Below, one piece after another: positions 4,001 through 63,145 of a stretch of DNA of 64,000 nt (positions are counted from its first letter, which is position 1; each line of letters opens with the position of its first letter). The stretch is taken from IMG/VR virus record IMGVR_UViG_3300042934_000619, positions 1 to 64,000 of that record, one strand, 5' to 3'. The notes below the pieces were generated by a model. That model saw nothing but the letters and a program-made list of their open reading frames with translations, did no database searches and was not told the DNA's origin. The DNA is from a virus. The position numbers and the translations under genes are program-made.

Positions 4001-4609
4001 ATGTACGTCCTGGTTTTCACCCTGCCTCCGGTCAACGGTGCCGCCTTCGGCAAGGCGGCGGTGTTCGACCCGTGCCCTGAGCGAAGGAACCTGCACACTC
4101 TGGCGTACCGGGCACTGCGCAAGCACAACCCTCACATGGACATGGGTACGGCCAGCCGGTACGCCGAGCAGATCACGCGGAAGGACACGGGGACCGAGTG
4201 CGTCGAGACGAGCACGGGGATCACCTTCCGCATCGACACCGAGGACAAGGCACCGAACGCCTGCCCCTGCTGCGGTCGGCTGGTCAAGTGGGGTGATCAC
4301 GCCTTCGCCGGTAGCGACGACGCCTACTGCGACGGCTGCTACACCTGGGGCGACGACGCCAAGATCAGCTGCGACCCGAACCACACGGCGCACGCCAACC
4401 CGTGGACCACCGACACCGCCGATGCCCGCTTCTGCATGGAGGTGATCATCGACCGGGGTGACGAGACGGACAGCGATTACCGCTACGCCATCACCGACGA
4501 CCACGAGATGTGGGACGACGACGAGGACAACGCGCTGATCGCCTGGCCCGGCCTGACCCGTGACCAGATCATCGAGGTCACCATCACCGAGATCGACAAG
4601 GAGAGCTGA
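4001..4609 (+). CDS. hypothetical Cys-containing protein
   Basis: CPCC and CDGC motifs, high GC3. Confidence 0.8.
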   Translation: MYVLVFTLPPVNGAAFGKAAVFDPCPERRNLHTLAYRALRKHNPHMDMGTASRYAEQITRKDTGTECVETSTGITFRIDTEDKAPNACPCCGRLVKWGDHAFAGSDDAYCDGCYTWGDDAKISCDPNHTAHANPWTTDTADARFCMEVIIDRGDETDSDYRYAITDDHEMWDDDEDNALIAWPGLTRDQIIEVTITEIDKES

Positions 4610-38404: not shown

Positions 38405-38533
38405 CGGAGCGTGCGTCGGGTGACAACGGCGCGCAGTTGGACAGTTGAGGCATAAGACGACAGGGATAGCGCTCTGGTGCTAGCTGCTCCGTAGCGGGTC
38501 TCAGCGAGGGTGGTTCGAGTCCATCCGCTCCGG
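38405..38533 (+). ncRNA. tRNA-like RNA with enlarged anticodon domain
   Basis: Acceptor CGGAGCG/CGCTCCG, D-stem CGTC/GGCG, T-arm GGTGG-TTCGAGT-CCATC, 8-bp stem GCAGTTGG/CTAGCTGC enclosing 39 nt. Confidence 0.65.
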
Positions 38534-49421: not shown

Positions 49422-49522
49422 GGGCGGGTAGCTCAATGGGCGCATGAGGAGGTGGCCACCTTCGATTGCATATGCCGATGGTAGAGCGCCGGAGGTTGCG
49501 GGTTCGAGTCCCGTCCCGTCCA
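49422..49522 (+). ncRNA. tRNA-like RNA: Ala-identity acceptor, 49-nt D-loop, no anticodon arm
   Basis: GGGCGGG/CCCGTCC-A (G3-U70, A73), TAGCTC...GAGC, GCGGG-TTCGAGT-CCCGT; only 10 nt between D and T stems. Confidence 0.75.
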
Positions 49523-59521: not shown

Positions 59522-59596
59522 AGCGGGATAGCGCAGTTCGGTTAGCGCGCCGGGGCCATGACTCGGAGGTCGCAGGTTCAAATCCTGCTCCCGCAA
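59522..59596 (+). tRNA. tRNA-Met (CAT) with atypical anticodon loop
   Basis: Cloverleaf; A1:A72 mismatch; loop GC-CAT-GA; GCAGG-TTCAAAT-CCTGC. Confidence 0.8.
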
Positions 59597-59621
59597 CACC
59601 GCTCGGTTCGGGGAGGTTGGG

Positions 59622-59972
59622 ATGACGGAATCGGTTGCTGAACGTCCCGCTGAACCGGTTGGAATGGGCACCACGTACGGAGGATTCGCCGACATAGCGC
59701 GTCTCCTCAATGCACGGCACCCGGAACGACCGACACCGTTCAGCCGACAACTGGCAGCGAAGTGGCACAAGCATCGGGACACGAACGGCTTCCCCGAGCG
59801 ATGTCCTGTGGAGCTGGGACCCGGCAAGGTGAAGTATCTCTTCGACCTCGACGCTGTCGAACGGTGGCACACCGGCCGAAAGGTGATCCGCCGTCCCGTG
59901 AACCCCCCGATCGAGACGATCCCTCTGTTCCAGGTGGACAGCCGGGGGTTCTGGACTCCGCTCGCTTCGTAG
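59622..59972 (+). CDS. HTH (AlpA/MerR-like) DNA-binding protein
   Basis: G.ADIA..L...RQ...W...GFP....LFDL..V..W. Confidence 0.65.
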   Translation: MTESVAERPAEPVGMGTTYGGFADIARLLNARHPERPTPFSRQLAAKWHKHRDTNGFPERCPVELGPGKVKYLFDLDAVERWHTGRKVIRRPVNPPIETIPLFQVDSRGFWTPLAS

Positions 59973-59992
59973 CGGGAATTCGGAAAAAGCGT

Positions 59993-60022
59993 TTGACCTT
60001 GAGGGCGGGGACCCGATAGGTT
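59993..60022 (+). promoter_or_regulatory. HrdB-type promoter for the Y-RNA/ro operon
   Basis: TTGACC-N18-TAGGTT. Confidence 0.65.
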
Positions 60023-60080
60023 GAACACATCGAACGACAGGTGCGAAGGGTACAGCTGCTTCTTTCGTTCGGAAGTTTTT

Positions 60081-60217
60081 CTGTCTGGTGCGCAGACGAC
60101 GGATACTTCACTGTTAATGAAGAGGTCCGGGGTTCGAGTCCCCGCCCGCTGGTAAAAAGGTGGGTAGCTCAGTTGGTAGAGCACTTACGTTTCCGTTGTC
60201 GACTTGATCTCAGACAG
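60081..60217 (+). ncRNA. Y-RNA-like element 1 with permuted tRNA-Asn(GTT) domain
   Basis: Terminal stem CTGTCTG/CAGACAG; GTGCGCAG...TGATCT; arm order anticodon, T, acceptor hairpin, D. Confidence 0.85.
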
Positions 60218-60237
60218 TTCAATTCAAAAGTGCGCAA

Positions 60238-60312
60238 GCGTCCGGTGCGAAGGCAACGACGGCTACTTCTTTTGGTGAAATCACGCCGTCACGCCGTACT
60301 GATCTCGGACGC
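60238..60312 (+). ncRNA. Y-RNA-like element 2 (short, no tRNA domain)
   Basis: GCGTCCG/CGGACGC stem; GTGCGAAG, TACTTC, TGATCT. Confidence 0.75.
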
Positions 60313-60321
60313 GTACAACTT

Positions 60322-60461
60322 GTGCCTGGTGCGCAGATGAGGAGTTCTTCGCCTTGGGAGCGGGAGGTCGCGGGTTCAAATCCCGTTCGGTCGGCAGAGC
60401 TGACCGGTAGCTCAGTCTGGAAGAGCGCCTACGATCGCCTCGTCGACTTGATCTCAGGCAC
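60322..60461 (+). ncRNA. Y-RNA-like element 3 with permuted tRNA-Pro(TGG) domain
   Basis: GTGCCTG/CAGGCAC stem; TTCGC-CTTGGGA-GCGGG, T-arm, acceptor hairpin, D-arm. Confidence 0.85.
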
Positions 60462-60471
60462 GAAAATCAGA

Positions 60472-60592
60472 TGTCCGGTGCGCAGGACGACGCGTTCATC
60501 GATGGTTCGACCCCACCCGGGAGTCCCTCGCAAGAGGCTCGCTCCTGTTGCCCACTTGGGGGCAGCTCGCGTTTCCGATCTGATCTCGGACA
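60472..60592 (+). ncRNA. Y-RNA-like element 4 (YrlA-type, T/acceptor/D arms, no anticodon arm)
   Basis: TGTCCG/CGGACA stem; GGTTCGACCC T-loop; conserved flanking motifs. Confidence 0.78.
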
Positions 60593-60598
60593 GTACAA

Positions 60599-60750
60599 GG
60601 GTGCGTAGCTCAGAAGGTAGAGCGGCCCGAAAACGGACGGGCGGCGTGTCGAGACGGTTGCGGATGCACCGAATGGCTCTCGCAGGGTCTGTAGGGAAGC
60701 GCGTTTTCCAAGCTCGGCTCACGGCGCGGGTTCGAGTCCCGTCGCATCCA
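60599..60750 (+). ncRNA. tRNA-like RNA: Ala-identity acceptor, 8-nt anticodon loop, roughly 80-nt variable-arm insert
   Basis: GGGTGCG/CGCATCC-A (G3-U70, A73), TAGCTCAGAAGGTAGAGC, GCGGG-TTCGAGT-CCCGT. Confidence 0.75.
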
Positions 60751-60863
60751 CGGCACATAATCGGCTCCGACGTCCCTACTCGACTTCAGTCGTCGGAGAA
60801 ACGAGGACTCTGGCATTGACGATGGTTATGTCCTCGTTGCCCCGGCGCAAGCCGGGGTTACCC

Positions 60864-60938
60864 GGGAGGCCCTGGCCAGGCACACGGCTAAAACACCGGC
60901 GCACCCGGTGCGAGACGGTTCAAGTCCGTCAACTCCCA
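60864..60938 (+). tRNA. degenerate tRNA-Cys(GCA)-like element
   Basis: CACCG-GCGCACC-CGGTG, GACGG-TTCAAGT-CCGTC; acceptor only 5 bp. Confidence 0.4.
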
Positions 60939-60940
60939 CT

Positions 60941-61027
60941 GGTTCCTGGTGCGAAGCCACCACGGGTACTTCATTTCTCTCTCAAAGAAACCCGAACCCC
61001 GTATCGGCACCCCTGATCTCAGGAACC
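60941..61027 (+). ncRNA. Y-RNA-like element 5 (short, pyrimidine-rich loop)
   Basis: GGTTCCTG/CAGGAACC stem; GTGCGAAG, TACTTC, TGATCT; immediately upstream of ro. Confidence 0.78.
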
Positions 61028-61073
61028 GCATGACCACCGGCACGACCGGTGCGACAGGAAGGAAGATGGAGAC

Positions 61074-62756
61074 ATGGCGCGCTTCAACTCGCGTGGACAC
61101 CGGGCGAAGCCTGCGGTGGCGACGGTAAGCAGTCCGATCGGTACTGCCACGAAGAAGGCGAACACCCGTACGTTCGAAGGCGGCGCGGGATACACGCGTG
61201 ATGCCAAGACGGAGCTGTTCCTGCGTGCGACCGGTGCGTTCCACGGCGGCGAGGGCAGCTTCTACGAGTCCGCCGACAAGCGCGACAACCGGCTTCGTGA
61301 GCTGGTACGTACGATCGCGATCGAAGACCCGGACTGGGGATTCGAGTTCGCGCGCTGGCTCCGGTCCGAGGGTCACATGCGCACGGCATCGCTGATGTTC
61401 GCCGTCGAGTACGTGCACGAGCGACTCGATGCGGAAGCGCAGGAGCCGCGCACCACCAAGTACACCAACCGTCAGATCATCGACGTCGTATGCCAGCGTC
61501 CCGACGAGCCTGGCGAGATCCTCGCGATCTGGACGGCGTGGTACGGGCGGAACATCCCGCAGTCGGTCAAGCGCGGCGTCGCCGACGCGGTTCGGCGTCT
61601 GTACAGCGAGCGCTCGCTGCTCAAGTACGACACGGACTCGAAGGCGTACCGCTTCGCCGACGTGCTGGATCTGACGCACCCGACGCCGTCCCCCGAGAAG
61701 GCCGCATGGCAGGGCCTGCTGTTCTCGTACGCCCTCAACCGGCGGCACGGACGTGGGGATGACATCCCCAGCACGCTGGATATCATCCGCAACAACGCCT
61801 CGTTCCGAGCGCGGGCGGCTGAGACGCACTCGTTGCTGTGCTCGCCGGACGCTCTGCGTGCAGCGGGCATGACGTGGGAGGACGCGCTGTCCCTCGCGGG
61901 CCAAGTAGGCGTCGACAAGCGCAAGGTCTGGGAGGCCATGATCCCCTCCATGGGGATCATGGCGCTGATCCGCAACCTGCGGAACTTCGACCAGGCTGGC
62001 GTCTCCGACGAGGTGGCCATGACGGTCATGGAGCGCCTGGCCAACCCCGAGGAGATCGCCCGGTCCAAGCAGTTCCCGTTCCGGTTCCTCGCCGCGCACC
62101 GCGCGACCAAGGACTCCCTGCGGTGGGCGTGGCCGCTGGAGCAGGCGCTTGGTCACTCGCTGGTCAACGTCCCCCGGCTCGACGGCCGGACGCTGATCCT
62201 CGTCGACCGGTCGCCGTCCATGTTCCCGGAGTACGACCACTGGTTCCCGACGCTGAAGAAGTCGGACATCAGCCGCGCCGACCAGGCTGCGGTGTTCGGC
62301 GCCGCGCTGGCCGTCCGTGCAGAGCAGCCGACGCTCGTGGAGTTCGGCGGCGGCTCGCGGGTGATCACCTTCCAGCGCGGTACGTCCGTGCTGAAGCTGG
62401 TCGACAAGTTCTACCGGGACCCGGGTACGGACATCCCGAGCGCGGTGAAGAAGCATTACGACGGGCACGACCGGGTCGTCATCCTCACCGACGAGCAGAC
62501 CCGCCCCGGGTCCCTTCCGTCGAACATGTGGCGGAGCTACGGTGGCATGCGTGAGACGGAGGTCAACGACCTCGTCCCGAAGCACGTCCCTGTATTCATG
62601 TGGAATTTCGCCGGTTACTCGGCGGCGGCCATGCCGTCCGGGAACGAGGCGCGGTTCCACCTCGGCGGACTCACCGACAAGGCATTCCAACTCATTCCGA
62701 TTCTGGAATCCGGAGTGAATGGCAGCTGGCCCTGGGAACTGGACAGCACACCCTGA
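61074..62756 (+). CDS. rsr: Ro60/Rsr TROVE-vWA RNA-binding protein
   Basis: FYESA..R, WLR....MRT, QRPDEPGE, KRGVADAV, LKYD, L.HP.P, ALIRNLRNF, SKQFPFRF; C-terminal vWA (LVDRS.SM, GTD, LTDEQ). Confidence 0.93.
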   Translation: MARFNSRGHRAKPAVATVSSPIGTATKKANTRTFEGGAGYTRDAKTELFLRATGAFHGGEGSFYESADKRDNRLRELVRTIAIEDPDWGFEFARWLRSEGHMRTASLMFAVEYVHERLDAEAQEPRTTKYTNRQIIDVVCQRPDEPGEILAIWTAWYGRNIPQSVKRGVADAVRRLYSERSLLKYDTDSKAYRFADVLDLTHPTPSPEKAAWQGLLFSYALNRRHGRGDDIPSTLDIIRNNASFRARAAETHSLLCSPDALRAAGMTWEDALSLAGQVGVDKRKVWEAMIPSMGIMALIRNLRNFDQAGVSDEVAMTVMERLANPEEIARSKQFPFRFLAAHRATKDSLRWAWPLEQALGHSLVNVPRLDGRTLILVDRSPSMFPEYDHWFPTLKKSDISRADQAAVFGAALAVRAEQPTLVEFGGGSRVITFQRGTSVLKLVDKFYRDPGTDIPSAVKKHYDGHDRVVILTDEQTRPGSLPSNMWRSYGGMRETEVNDLVPKHVPVFMWNFAGYSAAAMPSGNEARFHLGGLTDKAFQLIPILESGVNGSWPWELDSTP

Positions 62757-62768
62757 ATGCAGTAGATT
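62740..62768 (+). promoter_or_regulatory. HrdB-type promoter for the downstream tRNA cluster
   Basis: TGGACA-N17-TAGATT. Confidence 0.55.
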
Positions 62769-62887
62769 CTTACACAACGGAGAAGGAACTCTAGCGCCAA
62801 CTCCGACACCAATTTACATCCTGCGAGTGAATTGGTGATCTGCCCAGAGTCCGGCTGATGCATGCCCACGCGTCGGCCGGACGGCAG

Positions 62888-62956
62888 GGGGCCGCCGGTA
62901 GCTAAAGGGAGGACTGAGCAGCTCCCCGAAGATAGGTTCAATTCCTACTGGTCCCA
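62888..62956 (+). tRNA. degenerate tRNA-like element
   Basis: GGGGCCG/TGGTCCC-A, TAGG-TTCAATT-CCTA; no proper D-arm, 10-nt anticodon loop. Confidence 0.4.
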
Positions 62957-62960
62957 CGAA

Positions 62961-63034
62961 GACCTCGTAGCTCAGTTGGATAGAGCGGTGGATTCCTAAT
63001 CCGCAGGTCGCAGGTTCGAGTCCTGCCGTGGTCA
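62961..63034 (+). tRNA. tRNA-Arg (CCT)
   Basis: Canonical cloverleaf, loop TT-CCT-AA. Confidence 0.93.
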
Positions 63035-63035
63035 C

Positions 63036-63109
63036 GGACGCGTAGCCCAATTGGTAGAGGCGTCTGGCTCAGGTCCAGAAGGTTGGGGGTTCGAATCCCT
63101 CCGTGTCCA
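63036..63109 (+). tRNA. tRNA-Leu (CAG), short variable loop
   Basis: Cloverleaf, loop CT-CAG-GT, A73. Confidence 0.85.
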
Positions 63110-63145
63110 CTTGCTTCACCGGGACAGTCGAAGGAGATATGGCAA

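Follow-up and report, generated by a model that had tools for sequence, protein, structure and literature searches.

The gene at positions 60599–60750 of the analysed DNA encodes, as judged by comparison with its relatives, a member of a real, conserved and uncatalogued family of tRNA-shaped RNAs. The DNA, hereafter the window, covers the opening 64 kb of an IMG/VR record of 102,442 bp that has direct terminal repeats and a GC content of ~64%. In the reading that we favour with moderate confidence, the gene specifies a stable, non-decoding RNA that presents a tRNA body together with a fixed arm to a host factor.

An RNA island around a Ro60 gene

The RNA genes and the Ro60 gene of the locus are arranged as follows.

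59522–59597: tRNA-Met, first member of the RNA island, at its 5' end
60030–60592, + strand: Y RNA array upstream of the tRNA-shaped gene, with units framed by GGUGCG(C/A)AG ... UGAUCUC(A/G)G, recognised from repeats and folds
60599–60750, + strand: the tRNA-shaped RNA gene, 152 nt, CCA not encoded; 38.9 bits with the Rfam tRNA model and 173.8 bits with our covariance model R1
60751–60943: structured stretch between the tRNA-shaped gene and the last Y unit
60944–61028: last Y unit, upstream of the Ro60 gene
61074–62756, + strand: Ro60 (TROVE) gene, 560 aa, 323 nt downstream of the tRNA-shaped gene (Pfam TROVE, E = 2.5e-21)

A small ORF lies between the tRNA-Met and the Y RNA array, and the array itself includes two YrlA-like units, which score 41.9 and 35.8 bits against the Rfam YrlA model (both under its gathering score), and Y stems that are not tRNA-like. 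The deduced Ro60 protein shares ~45% identity over 99% of its length with proteins annotated as 'Ro-like RNA binding protein' in Streptomyces and Gordonia phages. Downstream of its gene, tRNA-Arg(CCU) and tRNA-Leu(CAG) complete the island. Together with the tRNA-Met these are the canonical tRNAs of the 102-kb phage, three in all, and since each of them flanks the Ro60/Y RNA cluster (59522–63110), the entire RNA gene set of the phage forms one island. Genes for RtcB and for a CCA-adding enzyme, sought in the phage genome as a context of tRNA repair, were absent.

The tRNA-shaped gene starts 6 nt after a Y RNA on the same strand, with no + strand terminator-like site between the two. An earlier, sequence-only reading of this DNA had proposed co-transcription with the Y RNAs; the layout behind that proposal is as described, while co-transcription itself, like processing of the tRNA type, we infer from copies in other phages, which abut tRNA-Asp, tRNA-Glu or tRNA-Arg on the same strand at 0–8 nt from these ordinary tRNAs. 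The RNA would thus share a transcript with the Y RNA and tRNA genes next to it and be excised by the tRNA end-processing enzymes of the host.

The structured stretch at 60751–60943 contains a T-arm-like GACGGUUCAAGUCCGUC after CCGGUGCGAGA, the latter resembling the Y 5' handle, as well as GGGAG and CUCCC segments able to pair with each other, and CGAGACGGUU, the repeat of a 10-mer found in the tRNA-shaped gene. Over approximately 80 nt, this stretch has 82% identity to a related Ro phage (G011). The acceptor 5' strand of the tRNA-shaped RNA, GGGUGCGUAG (60599–60608), also has GGUGCG in common with the Y RNA 5' handle CUGGUGCGCAG; as GGUGCG in the acceptor is limited to the sub-lineage of the window, this likeness is probably a coincidence.

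A complete tRNA body with a non-decoding loop

The Rfam tRNA model (RF00005) spans 60599–60750 from end to end with a score of 38.9 bits (gathering score 29, E = 1e-5), taking 95 nt as an insertion, and the element was found to comprise a complete, non-permuted tRNA body with ~80 nt in the variable position. The parts of the body are listed below.

60599–60605, + strand: acceptor 5' strand GGGUGCG, pairing with CGCAUCC at 60743–60749, with G3-U70 and the discriminator A at 60750
60608–60623, + strand: D arm GCUC-AGAAGGUA-GAGC, with G18 G19, G15 and U at position 20
60625–60642, + strand: small stem-loop at the anticodon position, GCCCG/CGGGC, with double-sided changes at all five pairs in the family
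60630–60637, + strand: its 8-nt loop AAAACGGA, near-invariant in the family, with A where U33 would be expected
60726–60742, + strand: T arm GCGGG-UUCGAGU-CCCGU, 100% paired in the family, with double-sided changes at four of five pairs

The minimum-free-energy fold of the element is no more stable than that of shuffled sequence (z = −0.03); thermodynamics alone is therefore uninformative here, and the structural support comes from comparison with relatives. In the acceptor stem, double-sided changes occur at six of the seven pairs and 99.5% of the aligned cells pair. Position 15 covaries with position 48, mostly as G:C and as A:U in the Francob group and at loci L079 and L087, an argument that the tRNA core is a true one. 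The acceptor, D and T arms of a canonical cloverleaf are thus all present with covarying helices, and the tertiary pairs of elbow and core are in place at the level of sequence (G18 G19 with the T loop UUCGAGU, and 15:48). From this comparative evidence, the tRNA body of the RNA is full and competent to form the L shape.

The loop at the anticodon position departs from that of a decoding tRNA: AAAACGGA lacks the length of 7 nt, U33 and a readable anticodon, and ARAGORN made no tRNA call on the element. The RNA probably cannot read codons. Every anatomical feature that the sequence-only reading had described at 60599–60750, including the G3-U70/A73 acceptor of the window copy, was found in the sequence at its given position, in agreement with the Rfam tRNA match, and its view that the RNA is shaped like a tRNA, does not decode and carries a structured insert is supported.

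An uncatalogued family in Streptomyces phages and metagenomes

By blastn, the element was detected, unannotated and on the same strand as the surrounding tRNA genes, in 13 records of cultured Streptomyces phages, which fall into three groups: Alone3, LuckySocke, GiJojo and pSt2308; Comrade and Francob with their relatives; and Kela with JustBecause. The covariance model R1, against which homologues scored 47–182 bits, was built from four copies. As the window copy was one of the seeds, its own 173.8 bits are partly circular, and the family rests on the non-seed copies, with scores of 47–181 bits. Scans of IMG/VR and metagenomes with R1 and with sequence patterns yielded 39 copies, 32 of them distinct, and a pattern of D arm plus loop alone added eight further variants, for a total of 40 distinct copies, those of the cultured Streptomyces phages included. 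All copies are co-oriented with tRNA or Y RNA genes. The window copy combines the tRNA body, the loop AAAACGGA and the core GCACCGAAUGGCU..GGUCUGUAGGGAAGCGCGUU that mark the family, a description of which is absent from Rfam and from the literature searched. A strict core pattern, which divergent bacterial copies could escape, gave zero matches in 185,579 prokaryotic genomes and zero in plasmids; looser core patterns in IMG/VR returned only chance or coding matches.

Across the 32 distinct rows of the alignment, 94.6% of the cells assigned to helices pair, against 77.7% in shuffled alignments and 36–46% when the partners are slid along each other, and there are 213 double-sided changes, where shuffles lead one to expect 63. 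The covarying helices are the acceptor, D, small and T stems and the closing stem of the arm. These figures bear on a reading to which we give almost no credence, namely that the gene is a decaying tRNA gene with a mobile insertion or an intron, or a tmRNA relic. Its position among tRNA genes and a sub-threshold match of the Rfam tmRNA model to the copy at L070 (25.9 bits) would suit such a relic. Against it, core and loop are near-invariant in unrelated phages and all scaffold helices are compensated; the insert is far below the size of a self-splicing intron and gives no Rfam match; a tag reading frame was not detected by ARAGORN, and a true tmRNA is encoded elsewhere in a bearer (L056:5344–5641).

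When all ORFs of the window phage (G000) were compared by tblastn with five bearer and seven non-bearer genomes, no phage protein common to the bearers was found, the top 'hit' being an antisense ORF over the RNA itself. The constant partner of the RNA is therefore more likely to be a host factor.

Several features of the neighbourhood may be recorded here. The element repeatedly adjoins tRNA-Asp(GUC), often within 0–180 nt, and in several phages tRNA-Arg(ACG) as well (L048:2380–2728, L070:1233–1458, L300:4904–5157, L294:725–1157, L298:1989–2322 and L046:2247–2650 for the tRNA-Asp synteny), and this synteny block is kept across otherwise unrelated phages. Odd tRNAs were found beside the element in two loci (L295:3480–3556; L060:3121–3194 and 4292–4410), where ARAGORN proposed a 4-nt anticodon (cuaa) and a 2-nt anticodon; a 119-nt match to the tRNA model, with 43.1 bits, is among these neighbours. 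In LuckySocke (OR725497.1, 7771–7918), the homologous RNA is overlaid by the annotated 'hypothetical protein' gene 22, probably a spurious ORF.

Structure of the variable-position arm

The insert leaves the tRNA body as an arm, whose elements in the window copy are as follows.

60645–60653, + strand: closing stem 5' strand, CGUG plus UCGAG, pairing with CUCGG at 60713–60717 and CACG at 60720–60723, with a CU bulge at 60718–60719
60656–60668, + strand: GG, then hairpin A (U, UGC-GGAU-GCA); the GG is proposed to pair with CC at 60708–60709
60669–60695, + strand: hairpin B, made of CC, GAAU opposite UGUA, a GGCU-GGUC helix, a variable loop at 60679–60685, and GG
60696–60712, + strand: junction strand GAAGCGCGUUUU, then CCAAG, with CGUU at 60702–60705

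An unconserved insert had been named beforehand as a finding that would speak against the sequence-only reading; the insert is strongly conserved. The covariation looked for within it was found in part: in the closing stem, the five inner pairs all covary and are 93% paired across the family, whereas the outermost four (CGUG/CACG) are 48% paired and the core of the narrow group is invariant. This core, of ~55 nt, is near-invariant throughout, and GCACCGAAUGGCU...GGUCUGUAGGGAAGCGCGUU is unchanged in loci that range from 43% to 66% GC. Since the core helices do not vary, covariation cannot test them within the narrow group, and it is the variants that decide between models of the arm.

The model that we propose on this basis comprises the closing stem and a GG/CC pair, hairpin A (UGC-NNNN-GCA), hairpin B and the junction strand GAAGCGCGUU. 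The stretch of hairpin A is kept as GG-UU(G/C)C-NNNN-GCA in nearly all copies. For the putative pairing of the GG (60656 on) with the CC at 60708–60709, loss of the GG coincides with loss of its UCC partner at L064, L069 and L078, with changes that are not complementary. All 32 copies of the narrow group have the same hairpin B. Among the variants, its closing CC/GG becomes CG/CG at L297, its inner helix covaries at L300, L294, L295 and L301, and its loop ranges from 5 to 11 nt. The internal loop of hairpin B (GAAU/UGUA) has what we take to be a resemblance to the loop E or S-turn motif; it is replaced by GAAU/GCUA, AACC/GCUA or GG(G)/(C)A in variants and is not a constant of the family.

Three other interpretations of the arm were rejected. 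The helix AAUGGCU/AGCGCGUU of the minimum-free-energy fold suffers uncompensated breaks at L079, L053, L084 and L087, while the rival CC/GG hairpin is compensated at L297. A GGU-ACC pairing in hairpin A is likewise broken without compensation, and the ACC persists after loss of the GGU (L064, L069 and L078). Mimicry of 5S rRNA loop E was dismissed, as the likeness to a Streptomyces 5S rRNA is limited to CCGA...GUAGG and the Rfam 5S model (RF00001) gave no match. No match was obtained when the insert was scanned with Rfam 15.

Two long variants (L079:4282–4501 and L087:750–972) have in common an extra module, AAGCUGCGU(U/A)GUGGCGUUCCC, upstream of the core, which carries a second CGUU.

Probable pairing of loop and arm, and the likeness to tRNA-Arg(ACG)

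The loop bases AACG (60632–60635) are complementary to the CGUU of the junction strand, and four pairs can form in 33 of the 35 copies scored. The pairs flanking this stretch are A-U in about half of the copies, and L064 and L069 show double changes from A-U to C-G there (G in the junction, C in the loop). Against such a lock, L296 and L299 keep the AAAACGGA loop without a CGUU, and L087 alters both partners without complementarity. On balance, the loop is likely to be locked by the codon-like CGU(U) of the arm; paired in this manner, it would be unable to decode.

The last five loop bases, ACGGA (60633–60637), are those of positions 34–38 in the loops of phage tRNA-Arg(ACG), CUACGGA. The loop differs from such a real Arg loop by the replacement of CU with AAA, which is complementary to the U-run after the CGU; it has 8 nt and no U33, and ARAGORN rejects the element. 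Of 27 parsed copies, 22 have A at position 20, where the window copy has U. Given A34 C35 G36 G37 A38 in the loop and A20 in most copies, the body appears to descend from tRNA-Arg(ACG) or to imitate it. The nucleotides A20, C35 and G36/U36 are classical identity elements for ArgRS, and together with an acceptor stem that is free to vary they suit recognition of the ArgRS type.

Two further readings start from these observations. In the first, the RNA would lure away, as a decoy or sponge, one of the host factors that recognise tRNA-Arg(ACG), such as ArgRS, the A34 deaminase TadA, TrmD or a defence nuclease directed at the anticodon, or else an arginine-accepting RNA with a role outside translation. 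It draws on the kept A34–A38, on A20, on the unconstrained acceptor and on the want of a phage protein common to the bearers, which points to a conserved host partner; phage tRNAs are, furthermore, known to answer tRNA-targeting defences (PMC10264068). We nevertheless consider it improbable: the 8-nt loop without U33 is possibly sequestered by the lock, the window copy has U20, and the invariant arm is left unexplained. No tRNA-Arg-specific nuclease is known to us from these hosts, which also weighs against a decoy. The second, which we put forward tentatively and do not expect to be the likelier outcome, is that of a self-decoding tRNA mimic, in which an Arg-type loop would be clamped in cis by the CGU(U) of the conserved arm, and Ro60 or a conserved host factor would bind the preformed codon-anticodon minihelix on its tRNA body.

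Alanine identity

The sequence-only reading had assigned an alanine identity to the RNA and placed it in a family of three carrier scaffolds. G3-U70 is enough for AlaRS even on minihelices, and G3-U70 with A73 occurs in the window copy, at L070 and at L068. In the family, G3-U70 is found in 4 of 30 distinct copies (pair 3-70 being CG in 14, UA in 7, GU in 4 and GC in 3), and the nearest relative, L086, has the same 5' strand GGGUGCG but G3-C70 and G73; alanine identity is therefore unlikely to be a selected feature. G3-U70/A73 is a trait of a small sub-lineage, and alanylation might occur incidentally. The two companion scaffolds are one at 49422–49522, with a tRNA model score of 39.4 bits, G3-U70/A73 and a 49-nt D loop, and one at 38405–38533, which is tRNA-like with an insert. 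When the two were compared with 12 phage genomes, nothing but a T arm matched, so that the three-member carrier family finds no support. An alanine-accepting carrier RNA, one of three cargo scaffolds of the phage, is hence a very improbable explanation, even with the shared G3-U70 of the scaffold at 49422 in its favour.

The link to Ro60

A TROVE gene is encoded by 14 of 21 bearer genomes, among them representatives of all three cultured groups. By comparison, the Ro protein of the window matches 52 of 50,697 phage records (~0.1%) at E ≤ 1e-10. Among IMG/VR bearers, TROVE is present in seven of nine narrow-family members and in three of eight variants. In two lineages (L085/L059 and L081/L053) the element ends 44–45 nt before the Ro start codon, and in the window, at L086 and at L070 it lies 0.3–1.1 kb upstream of Ro. 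TROVE is missing from G008, a bearer with a complete genome of 153 kb, from another of 437 kb and from two proviruses, and none of 43 other Ro-encoding contigs, retrieved through Ro, was found to carry the element. It should be noted that phage Ro genes adjoin tRNA genes, by which the co-occurrence with Ro is confounded. The link to Ro60 is real and not obligatory; a Ro partnership of the RNA is plausible.

One rival reading is that of a new kind of Y RNA: the conserved arm or the 3' end would be the site bound by Ro60, and the tRNA body would act as effector module, after the manner of YrlA but not circularly permuted. The location inside the Y array, 323 nt upstream of Ro and 44–45 nt upstream in the two other lineages, and the excess of TROVE among bearers speak for it. 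Against it, the YrlA model (RF02553), scanned over 60599–60750 with E up to 10, gave no match, and the arm is devoid of the GGUGCG(C/A)AG / UGAUCUC handle that the five Y RNAs of this phage have in common. In addition, at least four near-complete bearers lack TROVE, and the element is in 0 of the 43 Ro contigs. We regard this reading as possible, with the odds against it.

Long R1 matches just upstream of Ro in other genomes were rejected as copies, being tandem permuted YrlA units scanned over unit borders. Such tandem units (L029:3721–3873, L028:3560–3873, L020:3536–3684 and L033:3614–3768) mimic 'tRNAs with a Y-handle insert' and could trap tRNA-shaped searches in Ro loci.

Comparison with known tRNA-like RNAs

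The closest known system in role and location is YrlA, a circularly permuted RNA whose two ends lie in a Ro-binding stem at the position of the anticodon stem and whose acceptor is loop-closed (RF02553; Chen et al. 2014, PMC4201824). Like the element, YrlA is a tRNA-mimicking non-coding RNA encoded beside Ro60 and found in phages, and it has a D arm, a T arm and the tertiary pairs of tRNA. The element differs in its open acceptor ends, closed insert, small stem-loop at the anticodon position and arm at the variable position, in lacking the Y handle, and in belonging to a family that also occurs in phages without Ro.

With tmRNA (RF00023) it shares tRNA-like ends around a large structured domain, G3-U70 (in the window copy) and the existence of phage-encoded examples. 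It has, in contrast, neither a tag frame nor a series of pseudoknots, its D arm is full, its length is 152 nt versus ~300–400 nt, and G3-U70 is not conserved in its family; neither ARAGORN nor Rfam identified the element as a tmRNA. RNA1 and RNA2 of phage T5 (NC_005859, 'tRNA-like stable RNA with unknown functions') are of comparable length (125–144 nt) and likewise lie in a phage tRNA region, but they are not homologous: their R1 scores of 11.9–14.3 bits are at the level of generic tRNAs, and the core is absent. Class II tRNAs (Leu, Ser and Tyr) resemble the element in the exit point of the arm, at the variable position and a single base beyond the anticodon stem, yet their arm measures 10–20 nt, compared with a branched arm of ~80 nt in the element. 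T-box RNAs offer an example of anticodon pairing away from the ribosome, in which a codon-like triplet of Stem I, next to a structured internal loop, pairs with the anticodon of a tRNA. The comparison concerns only the way of working, as the pairing in the element would be intramolecular; the element is also without the T-box sequence, the antiterminator and the leader context, and no T-box match was found with Rfam.

A phage RNA probably aimed at a conserved host factor

The reading that we prefer, a stable non-decoding RNA directed at a host factor, would have the loop base-paired to the CGU(U) of the arm and thereby locked against decoding, while a conserved factor of the host would meet a tRNA body joined to a fixed arm that binds protein or RNA. 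In phages that encode Ro60, the RNA may have a role inside the island of Ro60, Y RNAs and tRNAs, as a partner or as a regulated substrate. The invariance of the core in loci of such different GC content, taken together with the want of a common phage protein, points to a conserved cellular target.

Mimics of tRNA, such as YrlA, tmRNA and the stable RNAs of T5, are a recurring route for phages and cells into the tRNA-handling machinery, and the present family would follow it with another design, in which the tRNA body is intact, the loop does not decode and is probably locked, and a core of 55 nt stays constant. For annotation, it matters that the genes of the family currently go unannotated or lie under spurious 'hypothetical protein' ORFs. 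Carriage by cultured Streptomyces phages (Alone3, the Comrade/Francob group and Kela) makes deletion and pull-down experiments directly feasible, and these could clarify the Ro60/Y islands of phages. Should the self-decoding reading prove true, the RNA would stand for a new class of RNAs that partner Ro60, or else for a means by which phages counter defences aimed at tRNA.
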